From: Sphaerodactylus townsendi | Taxonomy: Eukaryota | Direction: 5' to 3' | Assembly: GCF_021028975.2 (NCBI RefSeq) | Contig: NC_059435.1 | Span: forward strand, 78,368,001 to 78,432,000 | Length of the DNA stretch: 64,000 bases | Shown here: one piece after another, positions 7,051-64,000 of the stretch | Numbering within the stretch: position 1 is the stretch's first letter | How the letters are laid out: each line of letters begins with the position of its first letter | Position numbers and translations under genes: made by a program | The notes under the pieces: model-generated | What the model saw: the letters and a program-made list of their open reading frames with translations, nothing else | What the model was told of the DNA's origin: nothing | Database searches by the model: none

Positions 7051-8039
7051 TTTTCACATGTGTTATTTGGACACTGTCCATTTATTTAGCATCCGTCTGC
7101 TATTTTTCATGCATGATGATGCCCAAAACAGAACACAACATTGTGATGAAAAAGGCAAAAGAGAATTTGACAGACAGACAGCTGGGAACCCACCCCGCCC
7201 GCCCGCCCGCCCCCAGGACAGAATTACATCTGTCTTTGTACAGATCTGCTTTGTATATTTGTTCACCACTTTTCTCCCCTAAAAGAACCAAAAATGGCTT
7301 ACAATGTTAATTTAAAATACAATTTAAACACACACAGGTAAAACAAAAGCAAAACAGTCAACTCTGCCTTGGTTGGGCCTTGAATTCAAATGACTCTTGG
7401 GCCCTTAGCAGTGCCCTGGATTATTCCTAAAGATGGGGAAGAAGTAAAAAAGAGATCCTCTTGGGATCTGGACTGCACAAGGAGCTGGAGTGCTCAGTGG
7501 CCAGCTGCTGCCATACTTTTTCTAAGTATTTTTGTGGATAAAATTGCTTGGATCCATCAGACTTGGATGCTACATAGGCAGCCCCAGGGTGAGACTGTCC
7601 CAGGGTGCTGGTTTGTCCAGTTGTACGAGATGCCTTTCAGCTGTGCAGTGTGAGGATACCAACAGGGAACCTTGAGACAGACCCCCCTGCTTGCATGACC
7701 TTTGCCCTTTCTGGCCCCATACATCTGCAAGAGAGGGGGTGGCATGGGTCCTAAAATACAACTTTTTGTCAAATAGTCTCTGATTGGTTTCACTGTGAAG
7801 GAGTGACTACTGTGCAGCAGGCCATAGGCCCTTTGCAGGGAAAACGAAGGAGGTCGCTACTGTGTTGAGTGCTCCTTGGGTTTTGTTGCTCCCTCCCTGC
7901 CTCCCCCCACAGGTGACACTCAGCTCTTCCTTGTACTTCCAGCTGACCCAAGAAGGCTGTGGAGACCCTGAGCCAGCGCCCGGAGGCAGTTCTGGGGTGG
8001 GTGCAGGCTAATAAACTGAAGCACACAACTATGTACAAT

Positions 8040-8625
8040 GCAATAACTTTTATTAGGCATAAATTAAGAAGTTATTTACGATCTAACCAGGAGGAGCCTT
8101 TAATCAGAGGTGGCAATAAATTGACAAAAGCAAAACAAGTCATCAAAAGGAAATAAAAGTTATATCTTCCACAAAATATTATATATTAAAAATGTGTAAG
8201 AGCATAGTTTTACAACATTAAAAATATAAATGAGTGTTAAAAGGCCCATGGCTATGTCTCTTTTGCAGAGAAACTGCAACTTCTTCAAGAATCTCAGCAT
8301 CAGTACTATTGAGAAAGAAGGCCAAGTTAGGTGATACAATGACCGCAGATTTGTCATTGGATACGCTGCAAAGCGCGGGGGGGGGGGGGGGGTTCTATCT
8401 TTTTTGTATTTCGGGCAATCAAATAAAATGTGGCTGACTGATTCCAGTGGATTCAGGCAGAGATCACAGACTCCACCCTGGAGTGGAGCTGACATAAAGC
8501 AGCCGAGGGGGTTGGCTGATGAGAAAACATGAGTCTTTGCTGCCCTCGCTAAGATCCGTCTCTGTCTGGGCGCAGTCAAAAGATCGAGGCACTTGGTGAT
8601 ACTCCTGTGAGTAAGGGGAATGTTA
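8040..8625 (-). mobile_element. Older 3' fragment of a LINE related to 35612-38776
   Basis: ORF 8160-8687 contains VCDLCLNPLESVSHILFDCP (CCHC-like); the 3' end TTATGCCTAATAAAAGTTATT resembles TTATGCCAAATAAAGGCTTATT of the long copy. Confidence 0.6.
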
Positions 8626-12192: not shown

Positions 12193-13563
12193 CTAAAACT
12201 TCACGTCCACCTGGGCTTCCTTGGCCAAGATCATTATTTCCGAGATCTTGACGACCGTTTTGGCGGCTGCATCCAACTCATAAAGCTAGCCGAAGTGATC
12301 TTTGGCGGCTCCTGCAGATATGATAGTCTTTGGCATCGTCCCACTCGGGAGACCTCTGGAAGGGCGTATCTACTGATCGGGATCTTTAGCTCCAGGATCC
12401 TCAGCCTGCCATGATGATGATGATGATCCCCTGTAGGCGATCATCAATGTCAAGCGGCGCATCAGGCCTCCAAAGATGTTGACCAGGATCGCCTCCACGG
12501 TGGTTTTGGAGGTGATGATTTTAAGGGCCTCAGTCACTTGCTGCACCGTTGCGCCGCCCCCCACGTTCAGAAAGTTGGCCGGCAGGCCCCCGTGGAATTG
12601 TATGATGTCCATGGTGGCCATGGCCAGCCCGGCCCCGTTCACCAGACAGCCGATCCTCCCCTCCAAGCCGACGTAGCTGAGATCTGCCTTGGCTGCATTC
12701 CTGTCTCTCTCGTCCTCCTGGGCCCAGTCCTGAAGCCGGAAGATTTCCTCCTGACGGTAGGCGGCGTTGCCGTCAAAGGTCATCTTGGCATCCAGGCACA
12801 CCACGGACCCCATCGAATCTTCTGCCAGGGGGTTGATTTCTACCATGGTGGCATCGTGTTCAATGAAGAAGTTGTACAGTTTAATCATGTGATCAGCGGC
12901 TTCACGGACCAGGTGAGTGGGGAACCCAATTTTCTCAGCGAACTGAAGGGCTTGCTCGCTTCGAAGGCCTTCCATGATGTCCACCGGCTCCTTTATGATG
13001 GCGTCAGGATCCTCGGCAGCCACCTCCTCAATGCTGACCCCGCCCTGAGAGCTGCCGATGAGGACCGGGCCCTGGAAGGACGGCTCCATCAGGATGGCGA
13101 AGTAGCACTCTCTCCTGGGGTAGATGCGCTTGCACACCAAGACCTGGCTGCAGATGCGGCCCTTCTTCCCCGTCTGCTGCGTGAAGAGCTTCTTCCCGAT
13201 CATGCGGGAGGAAACTTCTCTGGCTTCCTCCGCAGAAAAGACCACCTTCACCCCACCTTTGAAGCCGCCTTCAAAGACTCCCTTCCTCCGGTCACCAGCT
13301 AAAATCTGGGCCTTGACAATGAGGTCCTGGGAGCCAATTTTTTTGGCTGCTTTGTAAGCCTCTTCCGGCGTCTTTGCAAGGATCCCGTCCGGGACGGAGA
13401 TGCCCGCCTCCTTCAGCAGCCTCATGCTCAAGTATTCGTGCAGGGACAAGCTCCTTGCTTGCAGACGCGGCCCTGGCCACTGAGGGCGAGGAAGCAGCCC
13501 TGGACCCCTGCCCAGCACCGCGGCCCTCCCCCTCAGCCTCCCCACGGCCCGGCTGGAAAACAT
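12193..13563 (-). CDS. Intronless succinate-CoA ligase [ADP-forming] beta subunit-like retrogene (SUCLA2-like). ORF clean for about 370 codons; C-terminal ~80 codons disrupted by clustered 1-bp insertions
   Basis: Kozak GCTGCCATG and Arg-rich mitochondrial presequence, then [65 protein letters not shown]. Past the annotated stop (12370) the native tail is still readable as [28 protein letters not shown]. No introns; minus-strand AATAAA at 11922-11927. Confidence 0.88.
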
Positions 13564-13689
13564 GGCAGCCCCCGGCCTGTGCCCTTCGCCAGCTTTCTGT
13601 TGCCTCGTTTTGCCACAACGGGCCTCTCAACTGCCTTCTTTGACCAAAAGCCACCAAAGTTCCTTCTGCAACGGCTCGCGGCTGCCTCC

Positions 13690-19927: not shown

Positions 19928-22900
19928 CTATGGATCGGGGCCCTCCAGCTCCATCCGCTGGTAGCCGGCCTCCTGCTTGAGTTTGGACAGGGTTTCGAGG
20001 GGCACCTGCAGAGGGGTGCAGGAGAGCAGCAGCGGGTGCACCTGCAGGAAGGGGTCCCCGTCCTCGCCCTCGTCCCCGTAGCAGGGCAGCAGGCAGCTCC
20101 CGGCGTGGGCGGCCTGGTGGGCCTTCAGCTCCTTCCTCTGGCTGAAGATGACGCCGCATTCGGTGCAGGGGTACACCCTCTCCACCGTGTGGGTGAGGTG
20201 GTGCGTCCGGAGGTTGCCCTTGTACTTGAAGCTCTTGCCGCACTCGAGGCAGGTGAAGGGGCGCTCGCCGGTGTGGATGCGCCGGTGCTTCATCAGGGTG
20301 GTCTTCAGGTTGAAGGTCTTGCCGCACTCCCCGCACACGAAGGGCCGCTCACCGGTGTGGATGCGCTGGTGGGTGATGAGGGTGCCCTTGCGGTTGAAGC
20401 TCTTCCCGCACTCCAGGCAGGCGAAGGGCTTCTCGCCCGTGTGGATGCGCTGGTGCTTGATCAGCTCCCCATTGTGGCTGAAGCACTTCCCACAGTCGGC
20501 GCAGGCGAAGGGCCGCTCCCCGGTATGGATGCGCTGGTGCCGGGTGAGGTCGCCGTTGCGGCTGAAGCTCTTGCCGCACTCGGTGCAGCCGAAGGGCCGG
20601 TCCCCCACGTGGATCTTCTGGTGGAGGATGAAGGTCTTCTTGGCGCAGAAGCCCTTGCCGCACTCCCCGCAGACGAAAGGCCGCTCGCCCCGGTGGATCT
20701 TCTGGTGGGTGATGAAGTTGGCCTTGCGGTTGAAGGCCTTGCCGCACTCCTCGCAGGAATACGGCTTCTCGCCCGTGTGGATGCGCTGGTGGAGAACAAA
20801 GGTCTGCTTGGAGCAGAAGCTCTTGCCGCAGACGCCACACTCGAAGGGCTTTTCCCCCGTGTGGATGCGCGTGTGGCGCATCAGGTCCCCCTTCTGGCTG
20901 AAGCTCTTCCCACACTCCGCACAGGGAAAGGGCTTCTCCCCCGTGTGCACCCGCAAGTGAGTGATCAGATTCCCCCGGTGCTGGAACCGCTTCGCACAGA
21001 CACTGCAAGCAAAGGGCCTCTCGGCAGCCGTGTGGCTCTTGGGCCGCTTAGCTGGCTCAGAGGCGGCCTGGGCTGGAGGGCAGAGCTTCTCCCCACCAGT
21101 GGGGGGTCCTCCAGGTACCGTCAGCCTGCGGGAGCTCTGGAAGGAAGAAGCCATCACCCGAATCCCGTCTGTTCGCTCACTTGCCGCTTCTGGTGAGGGC
21201 TGGCTCAGCTCTGTGTGGCCACCTGAGGGAGCAGAGATGAAGGAACAGGGTTGGTTCACTTTTCTCACCTTTAAGGAGTCTCAAAGTGTCTTTCAATTGC
21301 CTTGTTTCCCCTTCCCCACGACAGACACCTCCTGAGGTAGGTGGAACTGAGAGAGTTCTGAGAGGACTGTGACTAGGCCAAGCAGGCTGAATTTGGAAGA
21401 GCAGGGAAACAAATCTGGTATACCAGGTGAGGGTTTGCCACTCATGTGGAGGAGAGGGGACTCGAACCCTCATATTGAGGGGCCTGCCGTTCCTCCTTTT
21501 TGGGGAAGGTTTTAAATGTGAGTTTTTCTGGATGCCTCTTATTTATTTAATTATTAACCGCTGTTTTATATGAAGTTTTAGAAAGTTTTATTGATTATTA
21601 ATTGGATGGAGCTTATGTTATTGTTTACTGTGTCGTATGATTTGCTCCTCTATTCAATATTGTATGGATTTTATGTTGTACACCGCCCGGAGCCCTTTGG
21701 GGATCGGGCGGTATAGAAATCTAATAAATACATAAATTAAATAAATAAACTGGGTTCTCCAGAGCAGAATGTGCTGCTCTGAACTGCTACATCACACTGG
21801 AGACAGGAGGGGGGCCATGAGCCAGGCCAGGAAGGGAAGAGGTGCTTCACCAGCTCTAAGAAGACGCTTCCGGCCACCACATGACCCAACGTCCTCGGTG
21901 GGCTGCGGTTCACAACTATCCCATTTCAAACAATTTTCAGAATACCAGAACCCCTCCCCCGCAGCTGGCGCATAACCAGAAAATAAACAAAAGTCAAACT
22001 TCAGTTACTCATTTCAAGGTCATTTCTCTTGACAGCTGATCCAAAGTGGTCAAAAGTAGAAAACAGACAGCTTATTCATGAACCTTCCACCTGATCTCAG
22101 CCCAAGAAGTCACAAGAACTGGAGTGATAAAACAGACCACGGTTTCTGAAGGTACTTCCCAGCACACCCCTAACTGCGCCTGCAGCCTCAGAGAACTTCC
22201 AACATCCCCGCAGAACGAGAACGGGCACCCCCACCCCCGGCTTGCCTCCTGAGCCCTGAGGCCTTCTTCCAGAGTCCAGATGAAGGAGCCTCCCCCAGAC
22301 AGAGAGGCGCTCCCTGGAGTCGGAGGAAGGGTTCGCTCAGCCCTCTCATCAGGGGTGGTCAAGAAACCCCAGGCCCTCCCCCACACCTCCCACCTGGAAG
22401 CTTTTGCTCAGTACGTCAAACTTGAACCCGGTACTCCACTGTGCCAGCAACAAGGCTTACCCTCTTGAAGGACGCTGGGAGCTGTTGCCTGGCCAGGCGG
22501 ACTTCTGAGGGGGCCCCCCTCCTCCTCCTCTTCCTCCTCCGGCTCCATCTTCACAATCACATCAGGTCTGACGTCGGCTGTGTGGGGGGAGGGAAAAGTG
22601 GGACAGGTGGTCAGGGGGAAGTCCAAGGTTGGGGGAGGCTCAGGTGGACTCCTGCTGCTTCCCTAGACCAGGGGTCTGCAACCTGCGGCTCTCCAGATGT
22701 TCATGGGCTACAATTCCCATCAGCCCCTGCCAGCATGGCCAATTGGACATCTGGAGAGCCGCAGGTTGCAGACCCCTGCCCTAGACCAAGTGCAGCCCGT
22801 GCAGAGAAGTGGCACGAAGCCAAGCCTCCCAGGTGCGGCCCAGCTCCAGGTGTGTCCTGGCAGAGGCAGCCAGTGACTCAGGGTGGCACCTACAGCTCCC

Positions 22901-39424: not shown

Positions 39425-42400
39425 CTACGGCTCAGCCTCTTGCTTGACGGGCCTCTCCTTCATGCCGTGGGCCGCCTGGTGCTCCAGGAGTTTGTCCGCG
39501 GAGCCGAAGGAGCGGCGGCACTGTGGGCAGGGGAAGGGCCTGCCGCCTCGCCGATGCTGCCTGCTGTGTGCCACAAGGCTGGTCCGGCTGGGGAAGCTGC
39601 GGCCGCAGTCGGGGCAGGGGAAGGGCAGCTCGCCCGTGTGCAGCCTCTGGTGGGTGAGGAGGTTCCCGTGGCGGCTGAAGGTCTTTCCGCAGACGTGGCA
39701 GGCGTGGCTCCCATCCTGCGCAGTGTGCGTCCTCTGGTGCACCTGCAAGCTCTCCTTCCAGCTGAAGCTCTCCCCGCACTTGGTGCAGAGGAAGGGTCTC
39801 TCCTCCCTCTTGATGCCAGCTCCAGCTTGGTGACTCCTCCTGTGCTGCCAGCTTGGCTTGCCAAAGGCCATGCCGCCGCGTGGTGGGAGCACCGATGGCC
39901 CCGCCACGCATCCGCTTGTAGCCCTTTCAGCAATGGCCTCCCAGGTGCCTCTTGTGCCTGAAGAGCAGGCTTCCAGGAGCCGTGCAGTGGGTGGAGGCCC
40001 CTCATGGCGCTGGCTCGCCTGCGCCGAGAACTGGAGTCCTCCTTTGAGGCAGAACTGGCCCCCCAGGGCCTGGGCAGGCGTGCCGCTTCTTCCCACGGTG
40101 CTTCTTGTGGCTCAGGAGGTTGAGGTGGTGCTGGAAGAGTTTCCCACACGAGGTGCAGGTGAAAGGGCCCTTCTCCTCTCTGTGGAGGCCCTGGTGCTCG
40201 CACAAGGAGGCCATGTCCTCAAAGCTCCTCCCGCACTCGCAGATCTGCAACTCCGCCTGCCCCAGGGATCCCGCCCCCAGAGAGCCCCGGCCCTCCTTCC
40301 ATGCCCAGGGGCCAGGTGAGGCGCTCCCTGCAGCGTCTGGCAGCTTCGACTCACTCCAGCTGGGGCACGCCTTCAGGAGACTGGCATCTGCTGCCAAGGC
40401 AGCACCGTTTGGGGACACCAGGGGGCGCCAGTCCTCAGTGGCTGGATCCTGCGCGCTTGGGCTCCCGGTAGCTGTGGGGAGACAGACAGGAAATCCCTCT
40501 GTGAGAACCAGGGGCGTAATGCCCATTGGGCAAGGTGGGCAGCTGCCCAGGGCAACACCTTGTGGGGGCATCAAAATGCAGGGTTCGTTTTTGGCATTTT
40601 GGCGTTTTCATTTTGGCCTGCAGAGCAGTTTTAGTGGCGACACCAAAATTTCAGCGTAACATCAGGAGACTGTCCTTATGCTACCCCCCCAAGTTTGGTG
40701 AGGTTTGGTTCAGGGAGTCCAAAGTTATACCTTTGGACTCCTGGTTTCGCTCACCAAACTTTGAAGGGCTGCGATCTCCCTGATGATACCTGAAATTTGG
40801 TGCTGATATCAATCTACAAATGCGCCTGCGAGCCTAATGTCCTGGTGCAAAAAAAAAATGTGGTTGTGGTGGAGTGGCCGCCCATTGGGGAGGGGGGAGC
40901 ATCCAACTCAGGTTTTGCCCAGGGCTCCAGTTTGCCTCATTACACCCTTGGTGAGAACTGGCATGGAGTGGCAGCACTGGCGTAGCTCCAATGGGGACAT
41001 CCGGGGCGGTCCGCCCCGGGCGGGCTCCTGCCAGGTCACGTGGGGGGCGGCAGCGTCGGCTGCCGGCTGCCGGTTATGGCTGGGCTGCTGGGGGCGGATG
41101 TGCAGCCGAGGCAGGCCTCCTGGTGGGCGTGCTGAGGCTGCCTGAGGGGCAGGGAGTTTGAGGGGGCGGGCCCACAGCTTGAACAGGCACCACATGTGAC
41201 CTGTGGCTAGCATATGGCCTGAAGAGGAGCAGCAACGGAAAGGCTGCTGTAAAGGGAGCCCTTTCCACTTCTGTGAGCCACCAGCAGTCCCTAAGCGCCT
41301 GCCTGCCGGAGCCTGAAGACGAGCAACAGGTCAGGTAAGCAGCACGCAGGCACTGGCTGGCAGGCAGCCAGACTGGCCTTGGATCGATCTGGCGAGGCTG
41401 GGCAGGGCTGCAACGCGACACCCGCTGTTGGGAGGGTGGGGGGGGTGGCCTGGGCTGACTCTCTCTTCCTCCCCAGGGTTGCTCTGGGGGGGTGTTTGAA
41501 AGCTTCCATGGCCAGCAGGGCCTTTGCAAGGATTTTTCTCCTGTAAAGAGCCTGCAAGAAAGTCTCAGCTCTCCGGGAGAAAAATCGCTTGCAGAAGGCC
41601 ATGGAGCCAAACACCCCCCAGAGCAGCCGAGGGCAGCCCCAGCCAGGTCTCTGATCCTGTGATCTCAATTTGTGAAGAGAGGTCCTTGATAGATGGACTT
41701 GAGTGTGGAGACAGGACCTTGAAAAATGGATTCTAGAGTTTGGTATCAGTATTATGCAGTATGTTGTGAGAGAATCCTCAAGATGGGAACTCTTGGTGTT
41801 TTTACTGAAATGTTTATGATTCCAAGAATAGTTCCCACAGTATAAAGATAATAAAGGCATGTGACTGTAACAAATCTATACCATGGAAGACTAATTCCAA
41901 CGTATTGTACAGAAATATTTGTATTTTATTTCAAGTTAAGTTATTTTATAAAGAATAATTTATTTTAAGCTATTCCAAGTTTTCTAAGTTACATTATTTC
42001 TAAAGACTGTGAATTCATGTTAGTAAGTGCCTTACATTGTTATTGTTAAAATTTGCCCCTTTCTCTCCTTCCTTTCCTTCCTGGCTCTGTACTGTATTTC
42101 TAATGCTGGGGGGCAACTGGGGGTGCTGGATATAACACCATAAAACATTTTCATAGCAGTAATAAAACATTTTGAAAGCATTTTGAGAATGTTTTCAACA
42201 TTTTTTATTTCTGCTGTGTGGCATGGCCCATTGCTGTGTTCTGTTCAGATTTGTGAGTTAGGACATGTTCTATAATGAGCTGGTGACTTTGAGATGACCT
42301 GGTGCAAAAAATCATTCATTGGTAGTAGTGGTGGAGGGCAGCTGCCCATATCGGGGGGGGGGGGGGGGGCTCAGATTTCGTCCCGGGCTACATTTTTCCT

Positions 42401-50736: not shown

Positions 50737-51965
50737 ATGGCCTCCGGCTCCTGGCTGAGGGCGCTGGCGGCTCCCCTGCGGTGGGGTACGTGGTGGCAAC
50801 TCCCGGCGGGGGGTCTTTGGGGACGGGCTGGAGGCGGCGGAGAGGTTGATGCAGGGATGCAGCTGGCGGGGGCGGGGGAGAGGCCTGACAGCCTCCCCCC
50901 CCCCCCAATGCCTCCGCTCGGGGCCCCCCCTTGCATTAAGAGGCCGAATCCTCTGCCGGGGGGGCGGCCTGGACTGGTGAGTCCGCAGCAGCATCGCCAG
51001 GCCAGACGCGGGGAGGGGGCCGAGCCGAGCCTGCAGCCCAGGCGGGGAGGGGGCGTGCTTGGACTGGGCCGCCAGCAGTGGGTGGGTGCCTCAGCTGGCT
51101 CGTAGGCCGGATCTGGCCCCGCCCGGGGCATGGCCGACACCCCAAGGCAAGAGTTCACTGTCGGCAGCCTCCACCTCCTGACCTTGGGCTTCCTTGGAGG
51201 CCTCCCCTCCAACCACTAGGCAGGGTCTGTCCTGCTTTGCTTCTGAGATCTCACAAGATCAGGCTGGTCAGGGCAGCTACAGGCACCGATAGAAACACAC
51301 ACCGGCGTGGGGGGGGGGGGAGGTGCATCCGTAGCTGATTAGCAGGATGGCTAAAGAGAACCTCCACACTTCAAGGCAGTCACCCTCTGGATCCCAGAGC
51401 CAGGAAACAACATCAGGGGAAGGCCTTGGCCTCTCTGCCCTGCTGCTGGACCTCCAGAGGAACTGGTCGGCCACCGTGTGAGATGGGGTGCTGGGCTGGG
51501 TGGGGCCCCCTCTCTCCCCCCCAGTCTGATCCCACAGGGCTCTCCTTCTCTCCCTCCCTCCCTCCCACAGGCTGTTCTGCCGCCCTCCTGCGGCCTCCGG
51601 CGCTCACCTCAGCAGGCCCTGCAAGAGCTTCCATGGCCACCCTCAACCAAATGCACCGCTCGGGTCCCCGCAGGCGGCCCCCGCCCAAGCCCGGCCCCAC
51701 CGACGGCTGTCCGCAGCTGAAGGCCGTGGTGCTGAAGACGTTCACCCGCAAGCCCAAGAAGCCCAACTCGGCCAACCGGAAGTGCGCCCGCGTCCGCCTC
51801 AGCACCGGCAAGGAGGCCGTCTGCTTCATCCCTGGGGAGGGCCACAACCTGCAGGAGCACAGCATTGTGATGGTGGAGGGGGGCCGCACCCAGGACCTGC
51901 CCGGCGTCAAGCTGAAGGTGGTGCGCGGCAAGTACGACTGCGCCCACGTCATCAAGAAGAAGTGA
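50737..51965 (+). CDS. MRPS12: Mitochondrial ribosomal protein uS12m, exons 50737-50785 and 51571-51965, 147 aa
   Basis: [52 protein letters not shown]; phase-1 GT-AG intron after a 49-nt presequence exon; AATAAA at 52073-52078. Confidence 0.96.
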
Positions 51966-54019: not shown

Positions 54020-55667
54020 TTTAAATGTCCCTACTGGCTCTGGGTAAAAATTAAGGGGCAGAAAAACAACAGTGATCTCATTGTGGGGGTCTATTACAGA
54101 CCCCCAAGCCAGACTGAAGAGTTGGTTGATGCCTTCCTGGAGCAGATGTAATAGTAGTCATGGGAGATTTCAATTACCCAGATACTTGCTGGGAGTCAAA
54201 CTCTGCCAAGACTACCAGGTCCAACAGTTTCCTCACTTGCCTTGCAGACAGTTTCATGGTCCAGAAGGTGGATGAGGCAACAAGGGGACCGGCTATTTCA
54301 GATCTGCTCCTAACCAACGATAACCTGATTAATGGGGTGGAAGCGGCAGGGACCTTCGGTGGGGGTGGCCACATTCTCCTGGAGATTTTAGTAAGGCTTT
54401 TGACAAGGTGGCCCATGATATTCTTGCAAGTAAGCTGGAAAGATGTGGACTAGACAATGCATCTGTTTTCAGTGGTGGCGAACCTTTGGCACTCCAGATG
54501 TTATGGGCTACAATTCCCATCAGCCCCTGCTAGCATGGCCAATTGCTGGTGCAGGGGCTGATGGGAATTGTATTCCATGCTGACAGGGGCTGATGGGAAT
54601 TGTATTCCATAACATCTGGAGTGCCAAAGGTTTGCCACCACGGCATTAGATGGATTTGTAACTGGTTGGCTGGTTGAACCCAAAGGGTGCTCAGCAGTGG
54701 CTCATCCTCATCCTGGAGAGAAGTGACTAGTGGGGTGCCATAGGGTTCCTGGGCCCAGTGCTATTCAATATTTTTATCAACGACTTGGATGATGGAATAG
54801 AGGGCATCCTAATCAAATTTGCACGATATCAAATTAGGAGGGGTAGCTAATACCCTGGAGGACAGGGGCGGATTCAAAATGACCAGGACAGATTAGAGAG
54901 CTGGGCCAAAACAAACAAAATGGACGTCAATAGAGATAAATGTAAGATTCAACACTTAGGCAGAAAAAATGAAATGCACAGATATAGGATGGGTGACACC
55001 TGGCGTTTGACAACGGTGCACGTGAAAGGGATCCGGGAGTCTGAATATGAGTCAGCAGTGTGATATGGCAGCCAAGAAAGCCAATGCAATTCTGGGATGC
55101 ATCAATAATAGTGTCTAGATTGAGGGGAGTAATTGTACCACTATTCTGCATTGGTCAGACCTCATTTGGAATACTATGTCCAGTTCTGGGCACCACAATT
55201 CAAGAAGGACATTGACAAGCTGGAACGGGTCCAGAGGAGGGCGACCAAAATGGTCAAAGGTCTGGAATCCATGCCCTGCGAGGAGAGACTTAGGGAGCTG
55301 GGTGTGTTTAGTCTGGAGAAGAGAAGGTTAAGGGATTGACATAATAGTCATGTCTAAACATCTGAAGGGATGTCATGTCAAAGCGGGAGCAAGCTTGTTT
55401 TCTGCTGCTCCAGAGACCGGGACCAGGAGTAATGGATTCAAGAGATTCCACCTCAACATTAGGAAGAACTTTTTGACTGCCAGCGCTGTTAGACAGAGGG
55501 ATACGCTGGCTCGTAGAGTAGTGAAGTCCCCTTCTTTGGAGGTTTTTAAACAGAGTCTGAATGATCACGCGCTGGGAGTGCTTTGTGGATTCCTGCATGA
55601 CTGGGGGTTGGACTTGATGGCCCTTGGGGTCTCTTCAAACTCTATGATTCTATTCTATGATTCTGTG
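54020..55667 (+). mobile_element. Deleted CR1 LINE (endonuclease, RT and 3' end pieces)
   Basis: [59 protein letters not shown]; (ATTCTATG)n tail. Confidence 0.88.
54470..54643. mobile_element. hAT-type MITE nested in CR1
   Basis: Foldback with an internal duplication, interrupting CR1 sequence. Confidence 0.85.
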
Positions 55668-55961
55668 ACTCCTTGGATGAAGGAAAATGTTTATTGAAGA
55701 GACTCAGGATTAATGATTACGACCTGAAGCTAAGAAGATTTTATAAAAGGTTTATAAAAGGCCAAACAGTGAAACCGGTAAAAGGGGAACTTTGTGGAGG
55801 TGCGGACTGTTCCTTTCCCCTGTGAAGTGAGGCCAGAGAAGGGAGATGTAACCTGAGTAAACCCGTGCCCCCTCCCCCTCCCCTCCTTTTGAGTGAGGTC
55901 AGACCTAGGAAGGGGGGGGGTTATAGCACGCACACACATACAGGGTCTCCCCCCCCCCCGT

Positions 55962-57169
55962 TCACAGCTCCTCATCCTGCCGCCTCTTTTCGAAGAAAGC
56001 GCAGAACGCCTCGCGGATGCTGTGTGCCGCCCCAGTCTCTTCCGTGTCCGCAAAGCTGCCGGGGCTCTCGGAGGCTGCGGAGGGCAGGTCCGTGTAGTCC
56101 AGGCCCTCCTCCCACCCGTCTTGCATGGCCTCGTTGCGGCTCTCGCAGATGTTGTGCAGGATGCAGCAGGCGACGATCACGAGCGGGACGTTCTTCTCGG
56201 CCACGTCCAGGCGCTTGAGGAGGCACCGCCAGCGGCCTTTCAGCCTCTCAAAGGCGTAGGTCACGGCCATGCGGCACTTGCTCAAGACGGCGTTGAAGTG
56301 CTGCCTGGGCCCGCTGCTGCCGGCGTTGGGGTAGGGCTTCATCAGCCACGGCCTCAGGGGACAAGCGGGCCCTCCCAGCAGCACAGGGCGGATGGCTACC
56401 CCTTCGATCTCCCGGGTGGTCTGAGGACCAAAAGTCCCTTTCTCCATCCGCTCAAAGATGGGGGAGCCCCACGGCAGCCCAGAATCCTGCATCCCGCCGG
56501 ACCACCCCGTGTACACGTCCATGAACCGGCCAGCGCTGTCCACCAGGGCCTGCAGAACCATAGAGACCAAGCCTTTCCCGTTGATGTAGGCGGAGGCTCC
56601 GTGCGGGGAACACAGGATGGGAATGTGGGTCTCGTCCACCACCCCGAGGCAGTTGGGGAAGCCGACCCTTTCGAAGCCTTCCACGACGGCTCGCGCGTCT
56701 CCCAGCTGGACGACCTGCCGCAGCAGAACGTCATGAATCGCCTCGCACACCTCCATCACGATGACCGACGCGGTGGACACCCCGACGCCAAACTGGTTGG
56801 CGACAGATCTGTAGCTGTCCGAGGTGGCAAGCTTCCAGAGCGTCAGGGCGACGCGCTTGTCCACGGGGATGGCGGCGCGCATGTTGGTGTCCTCGCGCTG
56901 GAGCACAGGCCGCAGCTCCTCCACCAGCTCCAGCACCGCTTCCCGGGACATGCGGAAGTGCCGCACCCACGCGCCCTCGTCAGGCTGGCCGGCGAGCAGC
57001 TTGTCCCACCAGTCTGTCCTCCGGGTCTTGCTCCATACCGTCCGGTCGTTGGGGCGGTAGCTGGCCCCTAGCAGCAGCCGAGCCATCGCCGCCCGCTGCC
57101 TCCTGCGCCTCAAGCGGAGGTCACGCATACGCTTTGCCGAGGAGCTGGGCGCCTTCCCCGGGTGCCAGG
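55962..57169 (-). CDS. Harbinger/PIF transposase-derived (HARBI1-like, DDE_Tnp_4-type) exon
   Basis: [121 protein letters not shown]; strong acceptor with a CTGAC branch point. Confidence 0.93.
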
Positions 57170-57559
57170 CTGAGAGGCAGAAAGCAACCGAAGGGTCAGT
57201 CATTCAGCCACCTTTTTCTTTCAACATCCCCTTGCTGTGTGCGTTTCCCCCCGTAATCCGTTCTGCCCTTTTCCCACCTCATTTCTGAATCCAATGACTC
57301 TCCTCCCCGCCCAATAATAAACTTTTTTACAAATACATTTTGTGGCTTTACTTGGTAGAATTTACTCCTCTGGGATATTTCTCGACCCTCTGTGCTAGAC
57401 AGCACGGGAGCTACACAGCTAGTTATAAGGTATTTTCTAGGGTTTCTGTTCTGTCAGCTAGAAGGATATCTTCCCAGCAGTCTAGATGTTCTCAGGGGAT
57501 TCCTGAGTTGTGATGGCTGGTTACCAGGGTGCTTTCCAGGAAATCCTTGTTCTAAGGGA

Positions 57560-57607
<48 letters not shown>

Positions 57608-60600
57608 ACACACACACACACACCCCCCGCCTCCGGGCACATTCAGGTGTTCCTACTGTCTATCTATGCAGGACAAAAGGCAGCAAGGCAGACCGGCACA
57701 CCCAGGATCCCCAAAAGCAAACCTCCGAAGGAAGCAAACTTTCCCCCCTCCAACACAGTAAAAATGTGCAAGCAGCGTTGTGATGCGCTGCAGGAAGAAA
57801 CAAGCAGAGGCTTTTTCTGGAAGGAAATGGACGCATGCGTCAGAGGCCCTGGGAATTCGGTGCAGAGCCCTCGTTCCCAAGGAGGAAGGCCTGGGGGTGC
57901 AGAGTGAGGCTGCCCTGGGATCCCCCCTCCTTCTCCCCGCCCTGCCCCACACAAGCCTGAGCACAGCTGATGCCGCTTCTATCAAGGCCCGGCCACGACT
58001 CAGGCCTCCTGAGAGCCACTTACTGGGAGTGCTCTCCTGTGCTGCGGTGCTGGCCGGGCACTCGGGAGCCATGGAAGCGAGCTCTTGCCAGAGGCTGCTG
58101 GCAGCAGACAGCCCGTTGATGGGAGCCAGCAGCATTTCTTGGTGCTGGAGGCAGCTGGATACAGCAGAGGCATCTGGGTCTGGGAGCGGCAGCGGGAAGT
58201 CAGGGAGACCCACGGCCCAGGGGAGTGAGGATTCACTCTTCCTCGGCAGCTGGGAGCTGGGAGCCACCCTCACAGGGGCCGCCACGGGGTCTGGTTTGGG
58301 CAGAGGCCCCTTGCAATCTGGAGCGCTCCCCGCCTGGCTGTAATGCTCCTGGCCAGGTCCGGGGCCCTGGCAGCCGTGGAGCCCCAGGGTGCGGATGTAG
58401 CGCTCCTGGTCCGGGAGAGGCAGCTGGTGGAAGTCAGAGCTGCGGGAGGGCAGCATGAGGACGAACGGCGGCTCGCCAGGCAGCTGCTCCCTCCGGCTCC
58501 TGCCCTTCCGGCCCTTCTGCCTGGCGCGGCTGGCACAGACCTTGGGGATCACCAGTCCCCGGCTGGTCGTCAGGAAGCGGTCCAGGAGGGCGAAGAAGGG
58601 CATGGTCTGCCGCGCGCGGTTGGAGTGCAGGTGGCCGTCCTGGATCTCCTTGAAGCCCCTGCGCAGGTCTTTGGCCCGCTGCCGGCACTGCTCCAGGTTG
58701 CGCTGGAAGCCCAGCTTCCCCAGATTGTCCGACAGGCGCTTGTACTGCACCTCGTTGCGGTAGTTGTCGTAGAGCGCCGTCTGGACGTGGTCGTCCCCCC
58801 AGAGCTCCACAAAGGCTTTGGTCTCAGAGATCGTCCAGTGAGCCGCCCGCTGACGGACCTGGTCCAGGGCTTTCTGGTGGCTGCAGACACAAAAAGGGAG
58901 AGCAGGCCGCCCCCGGGCAGTTCAGACCACCTGGCCAGAGGAGCTCTGCTGTGTGTCCTGGGGAAGGGGCGATGGCTACGATGCCTCTTTGCCATGTGAT
59001 ACCAGGGGGTTGGAAGGGCAGCATTCCCCCCCCCCCCGCCTGCCCCTGCTCTATTTTGCAGCCAAGCGAGGGGTGGGGGCTGCAGCCATGGCCTCCTCTG
59101 GCACGGACAACCCTCCTCTGTTCATATAGAATTAAACTCCCCTCACACAGAACACACAGAGCAGTTTCCTTCTCAGATTTGTTCCCCAAGCTTGACGAGT
59201 GTTACAGCGTGACGTGTGGCCAGTCTGAGAAGCAGGCAAGCGGGACTGAAAGCCACCCCTCTGCCCCATTGCTCGTCTCAAACATCTTTTATTCAGAGGT
59301 AGACCTGCCTCTGGCTATGAAGGGTCCAATTACCTTCTATAGACCGACCCACCTGGATTTTCTACCCTGGGTCTACAAGCTAACCCCCGTGTACGCCTGT
59401 GGCTTAACCCTAACCCCCCCCCCCCCCCCCATACAACCCCTAAGAACCTAAGCACTAGCCTGCTGGATCAGACCAGAGTCCCTCTAGTCCAGCTCACTGC
59501 TACTCGCAGTGGCCCACCAGGTGCCTTTGGGAGCTCACAGGCAGGAGGTGAAAGCAATGGCCTTCTGCAGCTGCTGTTGCTCCCGAGCACCTGGTCTGCG
59601 AGTAATGTGCCCTGTCCTTCACCTTCAGACGCTTCTTAAAGACTCCCCGAAATCCCCCATCTGCAGCCCTGCCCCACTCCTCTCACCTGTAGTCCGCACC
59701 GTCCGGCTGGCCAAAGGGCAGGGAGCCGTGGAGGAGGGCGTCGGGCTTCTGGTCCACAGCGAGGGGCCTCCTGCAGCTGCAGCTGAGGCACTTGAAGAGC
59801 TTCCCGAGGGCCAGCTGCCCACGGATCCGCCCCGCCTCCTGCTCCTCGTAGGCAAAGCTGCTCCGGCAGTCGATGCAGGTGAAGAGCTGCTGCTGCTGCT
59901 GCTGCTGCTGCTCTGGCCGGTGAGAGTCCTGGTGGGCGGCCAGGTTTCCGGGTAGGATGCAAAGAACTTACGCCCACGCAGCTCGGTGGCAGGGCAGGCC
60001 TGCGCTTGCATGCCAAGAAGAGTGGGCCGCGACTGGAGCCGCGTGGGGAGGACGCAGCACCTCTCTCTCGGGGAAGCTCTGGCCGAAGTCCCGGCAGTCA
60101 TGGGGGGGTGCCCCCCTGGGGCTCCCCACCTTCTCTTCAGGCTGGATGCAAAACTTCGGGTTTTCTGGGGAAAGGACATGAACAACGGGGCAGTCAGTGG
60201 ACCCAGGATGGGCCGGAGGGAGAGCTGCGCCTGGACGTGACTTGCCAGGAACCCCCCCCCCCCGCTGTCCCCCCTGGGGCCCTGCAGTCTGCCCCACCCC
60301 TTGGTTCCATCCAGGGAATTTCTTTATGCTCCAGCATATGGCAAAGATGGCAGAGGAATCCCAGAGCTCCCAAGCAGTGGCTTTGCCCCAGTGGCCTTGC
60401 CAGCCCTTGGGTCTGACAACATGCCCCCCCCCCTGTCCCGACCTCTGATGCCCCATCTGACTGCCCTCCCCCCCCCGGTCATCTGCCCATCTGACACTCC
60501 CCAACATCTGTTTTGCCAGCCCTGGTTTTAATACTCTCAGGGGAGGAGTCAGCCTCAAGCAGGGTGCCCCGCCCACACCCCCGAGGCCCCCCCTTCCCTC

Positions 60601-62036
60601 TCTGCTGGGCTTCCACCGGTGATTCAGAGCTGCAGCCCCACAAGAACAGAAGGGAGGGGGTGGCAGACAGGGGGGGAATCTCTGAGCAGCCTGCCTGCGT
60701 TCTCCCACTGCCTGACAGGTTACAGCTGTTGCCGCCTCAAGGAAGAACAGCCTGCGGGTGGGGTGGGGTGGGGGGACTCTGGCATCAGCCTCGCCACAAG
60801 CCCCCAGCCTCACTCACCGGGGCAGGGGCCAGCAGGAGACCCCATCCGTGGTCCCTTGGAGTCCGTCTTCTTGCCGGCGGGCTCTGCTGTTCCTGGCTGA
60901 GCCCCCGCCTCCTCCGCCCGTGCAGCAGAGTCCCTGGAAACTGTTCCACACAAAGGAGGGGGGGGCTATCAGGGAGGAAGCGAAGCCGGCCCTTGAGCAC
61001 AACGCATGACACCCCTCCCCCCAAGAAAGCCTCTGTGGTCAAGGCTGGGACTCTGGTGATGCGTATGTAAGAGGAAGGGATTGGGGGGGGGGGGGGTTGG
61101 TGGTTGCCAGAGGGCCCCTCCCCCCGGTTGCTGTGACCTGTTTACCCATAAGTTGTCTTAGCCATATCAAGGAACAAGGTGTGGAAATGAAAGGTGGGCT
61201 GGCTCCTCTAGGCCAGTGGTGGCGAACCTTTGGCACTCCAGTTGTTGTGGACTACAATTCCCATCAGCCCCTGCCAGCATGGCCAATTGGCCATGCTGGA
61301 AGGGGCTGATGGGAATTGTAGTCCATAACATCTGGAGTGCCAAAGGTTTGCCACCACGGCTCTAGGCCAATCGCTGCTGGGTCCACAGAGCAGCCAGCCC
61401 ACAGGAAGGGACCCCCCCGCCCCTCCCCCAAGTCCAGAGGGGCTGCTCAGGAGGCAGCATTCCAACCGGCCGCCCTCAGCAACTGCCCCTGCGCCTCCCA
61501 AGGCGATGCAGGACCACGGAAGCTTCACTTACCACGGCGGTGGGCGAGGTTTTGGGGGGCAGCTTTCCTCTCCCTCCGCAGAAACCTCTTGGAAGGAGGG
61601 GCCTCCCCTCGAGCTATCCGGCCCAGGACCTCCGGCTGGTCATCACGCTCGGATACTGTTCAAGGGTGAGAGTGAAGGAAATTCAGCAGAGGGTGGAGAG
61701 GGTGCCCGTCCCTCCCCCTAGATTTAGCAGGAAAGAGGGGAAGAAGAGACCCCGCAGGAGCAGCAGAGGGGTCTCTCCCACCAGACGAGGCCAGGGCCAG
61801 AGCGGAAGGAGGAAGCAAGTCTTTGCCCTCCTGCTCCCCAAGGAACCGCCCAACCCCGGCCCAAACGCCACCTGGCCCAGCAGGGACCCAGCCAGGACTC
61901 TCCCCGCCCCCTCACCTAGGGAGCCCACCAGGGTGTGAGTCTCCTTCATCACATCCCAGTAAAGGGCCTTCTGCCAAGCGGTCAGCTCCGCCCACTCCTC
62001 TGGGGAGAAATAGACGGCCACGTCCTCAAACGTCAC
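55962..62036 (-). CDS. Predicted KRAB-C2H2-Myb/SANT-Harbinger DDE fusion gene; exons 61916-62036, 61533-61655, 60818-60940, 59687-60164, 58024-58880, 55962-57169; start exon not identified
   Basis: Six exons, all GT-AG, phases 1,1,1,2,1 compatible, 2910 nt in total. One in-frame TAA (59968-59970) lies inside an indel-damaged finger. Minus-strand AATAAA at 55690-55695. Confidence 0.75.
57563..57622. repeat. (CT)n(CA)n microsatellite
   Basis: Visible directly in the sequence. Confidence 0.95.
58024..58880 (-). CDS. Myb/SANT-like (trihelix, Harbinger ORF1-type) DNA-binding domain exon
   Basis: [24 protein letters not shown]....RN...Y..LS..L...[21 protein letters not shown]....G......[14 protein letters not shown], followed by a Pro/Ser-rich linker. 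Confidence 0.9.
59687..60164 (-). CDS. Degenerate C2H2 finger and polyQ exon of the fusion gene
   Basis: [10 protein letters not shown]; a damaged PCTECGK.F...[10 protein letters not shown]; (CAG)8 encoding Q8; [10 protein letters not shown]; FKCLSC; ends GADY-AG|GTGAG (phase 2). Confidence 0.7.
61214..61359. mobile_element. Palindromic hAT-type MITE
   Basis: Full foldback; perfect TSD CTCTAGGC. Confidence 0.9.
61533..62036 (-). CDS. KRAB-A (61916-62036) and KRAB-B-like (61533-61655) exons
   Basis: [33 protein letters not shown]; [14 protein letters not shown]. Confidence 0.88.
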
Positions 62037-64000
62037 CTGAAAGACAAGGCATTTCGCATTCGGCACCAGCTGCTTCCGTGGTTACCTGCAACAGCAACAG
62101 AAGCCCCCACAGGATTGGTCGCCATTCCAGAGGAGGAAGTTCTGGGCTGACCGTCCTCAGGTGCGATCCCAGCAGGACAGAGTGTGTGTGCGTGTGTGTG
62201 TTGGGGGCGGGGGGCTGCTGTGCTTCCTCCCCTCCCACAGGTCCAGCTGTGCTACTGACTGGGGCCCACCCAAGGAAAGAGAAGGCGCCTCTCCCAGCTG
62301 ACGCCATTCGTAGGCAGCCCACCCAATGAACGCAGGACGTCCACTCCCTGGGGGAGCACCTCCGACAGACCCTCCGCAGAACCCCCAGAAGGGAACTCTG
62401 CAGGCCTTCAGGGCCCCTCTTTGCCAGGCTGAGCAGAGCCAGTGGAGGAGGAGGAGGAGGAGGAGGCCCCTCGCCCACAGCCCCTCCCTCATGGACCGGC
62501 CTGCAGGTACAATCGGCTGCGCTTTGAGGAACATCAATTAGGGAACAGAAGATATTTGTCCAGAGGAAAAAGGCAGCCTCCACATCTCCAGGAGGATCCC
62601 CACCCGCCCCAGCCATCGCTCCTGAGTCACGTGAGCTCCCGGTGGCGTCCCATGTTCGTGCACCTGCTCTGTCAGAACGGATAACAGAGCTTGCAAAGTG
62701 GTGCTTGATGCTGGGCAGCAGTCTGGGGCTGCTCTCCTGCCCCCTCTCCAGCACGTGTCTAAGCAGCCCACCCCACCCCCCCATCATCTGCTCACCTGAG
62801 CAATTCCAGAGGGGCTTCTGGAGGTCCTCTCCTGCTCCAGGTGCTCCAAGACTCTCTGGTGCCAGCACTGCCAGGTGCACTGGCCCCGCCAGGCTCCGGG
62901 GGCCACCGAGCAATCCCACAGAGGACGAGCGGGTCGGCTGGCGCCTTCACAGCCTGGGGGGCAAGCAGCAGCGGCACAAGAGATGTTGCACTGGCCTGGG
63001 CACCGCAGAGACACTTCTGTCACACCCCCACCCCCCACCCCCGCAGGGCTTGTGCCAGGGCAGACTCGGCCCCACTCTGCTGGCCGCCCTCTGGCTCCTG
63101 CTCCGTGCCTCCTGCTCCAAGCAGGCTGCCAAACGAAGGGGAGTCTTATCTGCTAGGGCGGCTGGCCAAGTGTGGGCGTGCACGCTCTCTCTCTCTCTCC
63201 CAGATGTGGCAGGCCTCTCCCCGAGAGTGCCAGATGCTGCACAAGATACAGGGCGGGACCCATCCCTGCCTCCAATGCTCAGTGCGCAAAAAGAAGCCAG
63301 CGGGTGAGCAGAGGGCGGCACAGCAGGCGCAAGAGAGCAGGCTGGAGCAGAGGGCAGAGGCAGCCGGCGGGCACCGGGGGCAGAAGCCCCGCCAAAGGAA
63401 GGCAGGCTGGGCCAGCCAGCAACAGCAGATCCTGCCTGGAGGGGCTGCGTGCCAAGGGGAGCCCATTGCATTCTGGGTCCAGAGCACTTCCCGCACATGA
63501 CCGCCCTGCAATCCCACGTCGGCCTCCCTGTCAGCAAGCCGGTCCGGTCTCTGGCCTGAGGCTCCCCAGGGAGTTTGGGAGGGAGGCCGGAGTAGAACAA
63601 CAGGGGGGGGGGGGCTGCTGGACGGCGCTTGGCCCTCTTGCCCACTCCGAGCATCGTGAGCCAGCAGCACAGAGCCTGCTCACTCTTTCCCTCCCTGCCA
63701 ACAGCGGGGAGTGGGCTTCAGGAAGCACCCCCCCTTGCAGGAACCCACGGCTGCCCCCACCAGCCTTGCTCCCTCCTGCCTCTTCTGTGGGCCACATGGC
63801 GGGTCCACATCCAACCAGATTCCTGACCCCTCCCCCTACCCAAACAATGGTCACTCTGGGGCCTCCATTCAGCCTCTCTGTACCTGGGCTGCCGGCAGCC
63901 TCCTTGGCTGGCACATCTGGCAGCAGGATACCTTCCACATCTGCTTCTGTCTCCCAGATGTCTCTGTCCGCCTCCATTTCGCGGGCCCACTCTAGGCCGT

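Follow-up and report, generated by a model that had tools for sequence, protein, structure and literature searches.

The stretch of DNA considered here, 64,000 nucleotides from the gecko Sphaerodactylus townsendi (the window), contains a long open frame that reads as a Harbinger nuclease with an altered active site, and the question raised by this locus is what such a transposase does when its catalytic residues appear to be gone. The gene to which this frame belongs is almost certainly a domesticated fusion gene. In the reading proposed here, a KRAB zinc-finger gene of lizards took up a Harbinger transposase; two of the three catalytic acids are lost. The captured nuclease would likely be non-cutting and would likely play a structural part within a transcriptional repressor, and the net role that our analysis favors for the protein is that of a Myb-targeted KRAB repressor.

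The organization of the gene is given in Table 1, where residue numbers are those of protein P0001, the 402-residue open frame at window positions 57170-55965 on the minus strand. The gene order is KRAB, zinc fingers, Myb, and nuclease, with six exons that have GT-AG ends, and KRAB, Myb, and DDE_Tnp_4 are annotated together in proteins P0002 and P0004. The match of the nuclease to Pfam DDE_Tnp_4 scores 74.3 bits against a cut-off of 24.8 and covers the entire profile (1-158 of 158). The exon that follows KRAB-A is one that we take, by resemblance, to be KRAB-B-like. The preliminary description of this locus had placed the Harbinger motifs at 56230..56640 with the first Asp and the Asp of the QD motif kept, and the motifs are found as described, on the minus strand and within the 402-residue frame. 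Its statement that approximately 400 codons are intact holds for the open frame, but approximately 35 of these codons are apparently not nuclease-derived.

Table 1. Coordinates of the KRAB-Harbinger gene and of selected residues in the window.
Feature	Position	Strand	Remarks
Further upstream exon	starts near 63883	-	joint 62952/63883 in X4
Exon upstream of KRAB	62792..62952	-	X4 contig 62792-62958; joint 62952/63883, CT..AC, 24 letters on short side
KRAB-A exon	61916..62036	-	Pfam KRAB E 5.3e-20; same 1703-nt X4 contig as zinc-finger and Myb exons
Exon after KRAB-A	61533..61655	-	joint 61655/61916 in X4
Linker exon	60818..60940	-	joints 60164/60818 and 60940/61533, CT..AC, X4
Zinc-finger exon	59687..60164	-	Eublepharis orthologue has zf-C2H2
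Exon with Harbinger-type Myb/SANT domain (58577-58840), conserved extension, and variable linker	58024..58880	-	Pfam Myb_DNA-bind_4 E 9.1e-14
Last coding exon, 402 codons plus stop	55962..57169	-	open frame; phase-1 AG acceptor; short basic helix (probably Myb-exon-2-derived) and Harbinger nuclease
Basic helix, residues 2-36	57063..57169	-	likely start of Harbinger Myb gene exon 2
Helix-turn-helix region, HTH_Tnp_4, residues 104-147	56730..56861	-	Pfam E 6.8e-05, under curated cut-off
DDE_Tnp_4 RNase H-like core, residues 178-340	56151..56639	-	Pfam E 1.1e-20
D179 (retained first Asp of the triad) and the new acid E180	56631..56636	-	D179 at 56636-56634
D229 (the QD Asp)	56484..56486	-	Asp of family HD motif
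G267 (second triad position)	56370..56372	-	Asp lost; codon GGG
T304 (third triad position)	56259..56261	-	Glu lost; codon ACC
E308 (AFE Glu)	56247..56249	-	one helical turn past lost Glu

Sequencing reads bear on the triad codons as well as on the joints between exons. Four public runs (X1-X4) were used, all from one study, with X1 and X2 representing one sample that is possibly the assembled one. Relative to window positions 55900-57553, the contigs of X1 and X3 contain no other letters and no gaps, those of X2 contain no other letters and one gap, and those of X4 contain two other letters (56907 and 56918, outside of the triad) and two gaps at unlisted places. The triad codons in the read contigs are the same as in the window, and the agreement between read contigs and all 17 orthologue rows described below leads to rejection of sequencing error as the cause of triad loss. 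That errors are unlikely had been argued before on the grounds that both changes need multiple substitutions, which is correct for the present codons relative to those of Asp and Glu but not for the route to glycine, as an Asp codon (GAY) becomes a Gly codon (GGY) by one base change.

One 1703-nt contig of X4 runs from the KRAB exon through two short exons and the zinc-finger exon to the Myb exon across four CT..AC joints, each with at least 123 letters on the short side. The same contig continues 30 letters into the nuclease exon across joint 57169/58024, which is CT..AC and in frame, such that both joints of the Myb exon are present in X4. Only X4 shows the Myb-nuclease joint, whose 30-letter short side is one letter under the bridging rule, and this joint agrees with the annotated orthologues. 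None of the splice joints are found in X1-X3 in the regions compared. While the record of X4 carries no RNA label, the joints and the exon-limited depth of this run lead us to infer that it is RNA. Splicing of the gene as one transcript is strongly indicated.

The zinc-finger exon in the window has a local frame disturbance and an in-frame stop. All four runs have 29-35 gaps (the listed gaps being letters left out) over 59921-60300 or the whole zinc-finger exon, and approximately 30 window bases within 59921-60263 that break this exon are missing from all four read sets. The exon has a length of 445 in X4, which keeps the frame. Since the disturbance coincides with gaps in all four runs, assembly errors are the most likely source of the stop and the frame switch; the extra bases distort the database protein model, and the database protein P0002 omits the disturbed part of the exon. 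Downstream of the C2H2 fingers, which decay in several orthologue lineages, is a four-cysteine motif (CxDC...CxxCxC; window 59687-59875) whose conservation is 68-84% in all but one of 11 orthologues.

The state of the active site was examined by aligning the nuclease regions of 158 homologues, namely 17 orthologue rows and 141 non-orthologous rows. The non-orthologous rows have Asp at position 179 in 127/141, Asp at 267 in 126/141, and Glu at 304 in 125/141, and G267 and T304 are assigned to the second and third triad columns because the other rows carry D or E there. The structural model described below places D179 in strand 174-185, G267 just past strand 263-265, and T304 on helix 287-313. 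From their conservation, their position in the model, and what is known of the Harbinger family, columns 179, 267, and 304 are taken to form the catalytic triad. The triad of the window gene reads D-G-T. Among the 17 orthologue rows D179 is invariant, and the triad is D-G-T in 12, D-G-S in three, and D-G-A in two (both Varanus); the triad state is the same in 23 more rows, most of which are isoforms of these genes. Loss of the second and third acids, first noted in the window, therefore extends to every orthologue row, with Gly at 267 in 17/17 and T (12), S (3), or A (2) at 304, and no orthologue retains the second Asp or the third Glu. Judging from these substitutions, the nuclease domain very probably has no DNA cleavage activity.

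An active Harbinger element was considered as the identity of this locus and rejected, as the triad is broken, the gene is single copy, and the protein is one chain. The intact D-D-E of an active Harbinger transposase is absent from the sequence, and so are dispersed near-identical copies, the next-best genome match having 55-56% identity (152 matches; 150 of 384 candidates scored). An active element has two separate genes for Myb and nuclease; here, Myb and nuclease are one annotated chain in 13/13 long orthologues, with an in-frame joint in X4. Active elements also carry terminal inverted repeats (TIRs) and a 3-bp target duplication; of 266 inverted pairs, none of the 25 longest flanks the Myb-nuclease block, a length range in which short TIRs would not appear.

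A search of longer proteins gave 23 hits, 13 of which come from other species, cover 98-100% of the exon, and share 74-88% identity with it. These orthologues come from Rhineura, Eublepharis, Gekko, Pogona, Phrynocephalus, Sceloporus, Tiliqua, Hemicordylus, Podarcis (two species), Zootoca (two rows), and Varanus, and further searches added Anolis as well as Lacerta and Elgaria, for a total of 14 genera beyond the gecko of the window. All 13 long orthologue proteins contain Myb and DDE_Tnp_4, and 12 contain KRAB. The gene is single copy, is conserved in lizards, and has the triad D-G-(T/S/A) in all orthologues. Snake, tuatara, turtle, and crocodilian orthologues are absent from the 23 long hits, from the top 120 of the 799 hits of near length, and from the cluster members listed; as these are protein hits, drawn from candidates limited to about 8000, rather than genome-level results, loss of the gene in snakes is only a lead. 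Since the gecko and the other lizards share the loss, the triad loss predates the gecko split, dated to approximately 200 million years in the text available from PMC12262214.

Conservation is uneven along the protein. Mean identity across 11 orthologues is 95% for the basic helix, 90% for Myb, and 87-88% for the nuclease (87% for the DDE core), compared with 25% for one linker and 43% for the linker of the Myb exon, and this difference between nuclease and linkers serves as a protein-level proxy that suggests purifying selection on the transposase part. In 108 relatives with an intact triad, 125 columns reach a conservation of at least 85%; 90 of these are retained in the 13 orthologues, 25 are replaced, and 10 are variable, and the replaced columns include H228, D267, Y270, and E304. 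The AlphaFold2 model, built from a 62-row alignment, has a pLDDT of 84.2 and a pTM of 0.82, with a helix at residues 10-35 in the basic region. Structurally, it comes closest to piggyBac (Z 9.5, rmsd 5.8, 236 aligned) and Tn5 (Z 9.3, rmsd 6.0, 251 aligned), and the top eight structural matches (VIA rows) are all DDE transposases or integrases, so that the modelled domain has an RNase H-like transposase fold. Residues 104-147 give sigma-4-like helix-turn-helix matches at Z 5-6. Foldseek with the model returned nothing at E <= 0.001, and a sequence search of solved structures returned two chance-level hits and no Harbinger relative. The ESM Atlas gave generic DDE_Tnp_4 clusters, the first of which (0.90) comes from plants and carries annotations for both DDE_Tnp_4 and a Myb family, indicating that one-chain annotations exist elsewhere. 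The earlier reading of the domain as catalytically dead but structurally preserved is supported by the loss of two acids in 17/17 rows, the 90 of 125 family columns kept, the confident model (pLDDT 84) with its matching fold, and a triad resembling the DGA of plant ALP1.

The relationships of the nuclease were probed with quick trees only, using SH-aLRT support. The window-gene clade has a support of 100, its sister L002 clade 98, and the L003 clade that follows 96-98; by sequence, the window gene nests among Harbinger nucleases. Its nearest relatives, among the best 120 of 799 near-length hits, are Harbinger nucleases of squamates and turtles (45-55% identity). The sister gene L002 (G000:C15, ~30.72 Mb) is an intronless nuclease gene in a 44-member cluster, often labelled an IGFBP3-receptor isoform. 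Its clade has D-D-E in 14 of 15 listed rows (one unparsed), a mean identity of 95%, and members in lizards and snakes, making L002 a candidate active domesticated nuclease. Three other conserved squamate Harbinger nuclease genes are L003 (G000:C3, ~16.74 Mb; clade triad D-D-E/D/G), L004 (C15, ~37.15 Mb; clade mostly G-G-E), and L005 (C3, ~10.74 Mb; clade D-D-E/G; seen in geckos, inside a zinc-finger cluster). Two further fusions, SCAN-KRAB-Harbinger nuclease P0020 from Sceloporus (triad D-D-K) and KRAB-Harbinger nuclease P0053 from Emydura (triad D-D-E), are independent of the window gene, suggesting repeated capture in reptiles. Mammalian HARBI1 is present neither among the listed hits nor in the trees, and the lizard-only distribution of the window gene argues against HARBI1 orthology.

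The genome also contains a young Harbinger family in a distant clade. Its copies L014-L017 and L019 are near-identical, have an intact D-D-E, and are 33-42% identical to the window nuclease. In this family (with L050-L051), the nuclease gene has an intron and the Myb and nuclease genes lie on opposite strands; in L050, the minus strand carries a second Myb-like frame (7839-8399).

The last exon itself appears to be composed of two pieces. Its first approximately 30 codons are an ungapped match to the exon 2 start of the stand-alone Myb paralogue L044/L045, and the basic helix shares with L045 exon 2 the same splice phase and acceptor offset (score 56, 0/1000 shuffles). The best of 17 other candidates is the N-terminus of nuclease L002 (score 42, 8/1000 shuffles), a likeness that covers the second half of the helix, and a second stand-alone Myb paralogue, L048, gives no match to the helix (496/1000 shuffles). 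In a profile of five Myb exon-2 starts, the full-length orthologues rank at the top (E 0.001-0.012) and the best non-orthologous sequence has 0.12; as this five-sequence profile was seeded after the match was seen, it is supporting rather than independent. These comparisons make a Myb-exon-2 origin of the basic helix quite probable. Only ~30 of ~180 Myb exon-2 residues are present in the last exon, and the nuclease match to L002/L003 starts ~95 residues past their first Met. It is strongly indicated by the sequences that the last exon is chimeric, with a Myb exon-2 start joined to a nuclease lacking ~95 N-terminal residues.

The missing segments are of interest because, in Ping, in zebrafish Harbinger, and in the domesticated pairs, the nuclease is bound at its N-terminal part by the C-terminal part of the Myb protein, according to the text available from PMC7282668. 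With most of the Myb C-terminal part and the nuclease N-terminal start missing, a covalent link seems to stand in for the greater part of the surface through which Myb and nuclease normally dock. Proteins of the same Myb clade with SCAN-Myb or KRAB-zinc finger-Myb architecture (P0171, P0187, and P0190, the last a KRAB-zinc finger-Myb protein from Tiliqua) occur without a nuclease, making it plausible that Myb capture came first and nuclease joining second. Stand-alone Harbinger Myb genes are also present (L033/L044-L045, L034/L048, L053, and L054); the first two are confirmed in the Myb clade of the window gene, and orthologues of L033 are conserved in snakes (P0150 cluster). Among 32 candidates for shorter Myb relatives, only three exon fragments of orthologues were recovered, and no Myb gene was found within the stretches examined around L002-L005.

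How the parts would act together can be proposed from known systems. KRAB domains recruit the TRIM28 silencing machinery. In the window protein, the Myb domain would select DNA sites (ancestrally Harbinger ends), the KRAB domain would bring TRIM28 and its silencing machinery to these sites, and the dead nuclease would be retained for dimerisation, DNA contact, and partner binding. The closest precedent is provided by KRABINER-type fusions, as four KRAB-transposase fusions repress in a sequence-specific manner in the text available from bioRxiv 2020.05.07.082677 (10.1101/2020.05.07.082677). Similar to these fusions, the window gene has host KRAB exons in frame with a transposon-derived last exon, an in-frame host-domain fusion over at least two exons, conserved orthologues, and a multi-exon structure. 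Unlike KRABINER, its source is Harbinger, and both Harbinger genes (Myb and nuclease) were captured in one chain. The window KRAB retains D, V, E, E, L, and Y, six of the seven residues mutated in KRABINER. Against the repressor reading, a Trp stands at the place of the critical Arg of KRABINER, the nuclease domain is slightly less conserved (74-88%) than the L003 clade in the same six genera (85-91%), and Varanus is eroded further. A more specific version of the repressor reading, which is quite unlikely as a whole, is a single-chain pseudo-transpososome in which Myb docks on old Harbinger relics, the dead nuclease with its D179-E180 pocket pairs two sites, and KRAB silences or loops; the gene would be the inactive twin of the intact L002-clade sister, with the twin lost in snakes. 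If true, squamates hold an enzyme/pseudoenzyme pair (L002-clade nuclease and window nuclease) that has not been described before.

Harbinger proteins have been recruited repeatedly for chromatin control in plants, and we know of no established role for domesticated Harbinger nucleases in vertebrates. Arabidopsis ALP1/ALP2 (PMC4671723, PMC7282668) and HDP1/HDP2 (PMC5339849) are, in the available texts, domesticated pairs of a broken-triad nuclease and a Harbinger Myb, and the analogy with ALP1/HDP1 was drawn in the preliminary description. The analogy is apt for the dead-triad pattern, as the triad of ALP1 is DGA (PMC4671723), matching D-G-(T/S/A) of the window gene and literally DGA in Varanus, and the triad of HDP1 is broken (PMC5339849); as predicted from sequence and model, the window gene likewise combines a non-conservative triad loss with a kept fold. 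The analogy fails for the architecture: the plant systems are two proteins that dock via the Myb C-terminal region, while the window gene has the Myb in the same chain, most of that region missing, and a KRAB added, and is thus not a stand-alone nuclease with a separate Myb partner. The origins are independent. By the gecko-iguana divergence in PMC12262214, the window gene has been conserved for ~200 million years after a loss of the ALP1 pattern.

The ALP1 likeness also underlies the strongest alternative, in which the dead nuclease is the working part, binding a chromatin complex or a separate Myb paralogue, with KRAB secondary; such a scaffold could possibly oppose silencing. Besides the shared triad pattern, the whole surface is conserved (207/363 columns show no change across 13 orthologues), the genome has stand-alone Myb paralogues whose C-terminal regions are intact (L033/L044-45 and L034), and HDP1 and HHP1 reside in chromatin complexes. 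However, the ~95 N-terminal residues of L002/L003 that are missing here are part of the region implicated in Myb binding, MSI1 in plants is contacted by the Myb partner and not the nuclease (PMC7282668, available text), and the chain that holds the nuclease has conserved KRAB and Myb domains as well. The scaffold is consequently unlikely as a replacement for the Myb-targeted repressor.

A different alternative, and a very unlikely one, is a rewired active site in which D179, E180, D229, and/or E308 bind metal to give residual or altered nuclease activity. An acidic pocket does persist by sequence: D179 and E180 are invariant (17/17), D229 is D in 14/17 (A in 2/17, gap in 1/17), and E308 is E in 15/17, with G in both Varanus rows. 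H182, H339, and N340 are invariant in the orthologues and, with K199, K311, R313, and R315, are among the charged or polar family residues retained. Weighing against activity, H228 (the His of the HD motif, with Gln, Arg, or Met instead) and Y270 are replaced in 13/13 orthologue rows, and Varanus is without both D229 and E308. Moreover, a single triad loss already cripples Ping, where one Asp-to-Ala change lowers excision ~150-fold in the text available from PMC2836001.

Compensation by the AFE Glu (E308), suggested at first as a partial replacement, was rejected: E or D occupies the equivalent position in 13/13 L003-clade rows, eight of which have the true catalytic Glu, and Varanus has Gly. 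This residue is probably not compensatory. The sister L002 clade has Gly or Ala at this position, and E308 may have been gained independently in the window-gene lineage. E180 appears to be the better candidate for a new acid; the family has mostly Gly there, and E is absent from the five commonest residues, which cover 139/141 other rows.

A role in transposon defence, as a poison subunit or an end-binding repressor against active Harbinger elements, is highly improbable. The genome does contain near-identical intact copies, and the protein combines both Harbinger halves with KRAB, but the active-type copies are distant, Myb-nuclease pairing is element-specific in plants with no cross-interaction of ALP and Ping proteins (PMC7282668, available text), and the gene evolves slowly, unlike an arms-race gene. 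A decayed transposon copy, pseudogene, or assembly artefact, for which the in-frame stop in the zinc-finger exon could be cited, is scarcely credible, as that disturbance is missing from all four runs, 14 other genera carry the same substitutions with open frames, and shared triad states, read contigs, and regional conservation rule out a pseudogene.

Several vertebrate and insect genes are comparable to the window gene, and the statements here are limited to the available texts of the sources. HARBI1/NAIF1 and MSANTD1-4 (PMC9392472) are also Harbinger-derived host genes, but they are stand-alone, ~430-500 million years old, and found in jawed vertebrates or sarcopterygians, whereas the window gene is found only in lizards; that text has no mention of KRAB, fusion, or reptile. 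Insect PIF co-domestications (APLG1/APM1 and others, PMC9710019) likewise keep both element genes, sometimes in one transcript, but as dicistronic or adjacent genes rather than one fused protein, and the text has no mention of fusion or fused. The harbingerTRIM-linked gene (PMC12262214) is similarly an apparently domesticated squamate Harbinger gene of ~200 million years, but it is intact and located in a TRIM/butyrophilin cluster, whereas the window gene is beside an MRPS12-like gene; neither KRAB nor Myb is mentioned in that text. No description of the window gene was found among the top results of full-text literature searches or in the available texts of PMC9392472, PMC9710019, PMC9179366, PMC8616336, and PMC12262214. 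The host-transposase fusion paper (bioRxiv 2020.05.07.082677) reports that every major superfamily contributes; its main text does not mention harbinger, PIF, Myb, squamate, or lizard, and an earlier listing of the gene in its Table S3 (106 genes) is quite possible.

Domesticated transposases commonly lose catalytic residues, and this by itself would not be surprising. The interest of this gene lies instead in its fusion anatomy, a two-protein transposase collapsed into one chain and wired to KRAB, and in the live/dead sister pair. The pair offers a natural comparison, as the sister L002 gene has the full triad and ~95% identity, while the window gene has lost two acids and is still highly conserved.

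The surroundings of the gene include an intronless MRPS12-like frame (ribosomal protein S12 family) at 51339-51965 (+), which adjoins the KRAB-Harbinger gene and provides a synteny anchor. C2H2 zinc-finger arrays are also found at 19931-21280 (-) and 39428-40607 (-), the window being part of a zinc-finger gene cluster. An intronless frame at 12373-13626 (-) resembles a succinyl-CoA ligase beta subunit and is possibly a retrocopy. Positions 54050-55660 contain what we take by resemblance to be a CR1-like LINE fragment, into which a palindromic element is inserted at 54472-54650; a second copy of this element is located at 61208-61365, and another short repeat, of very high copy number, is present in the intron at 59440-59600.
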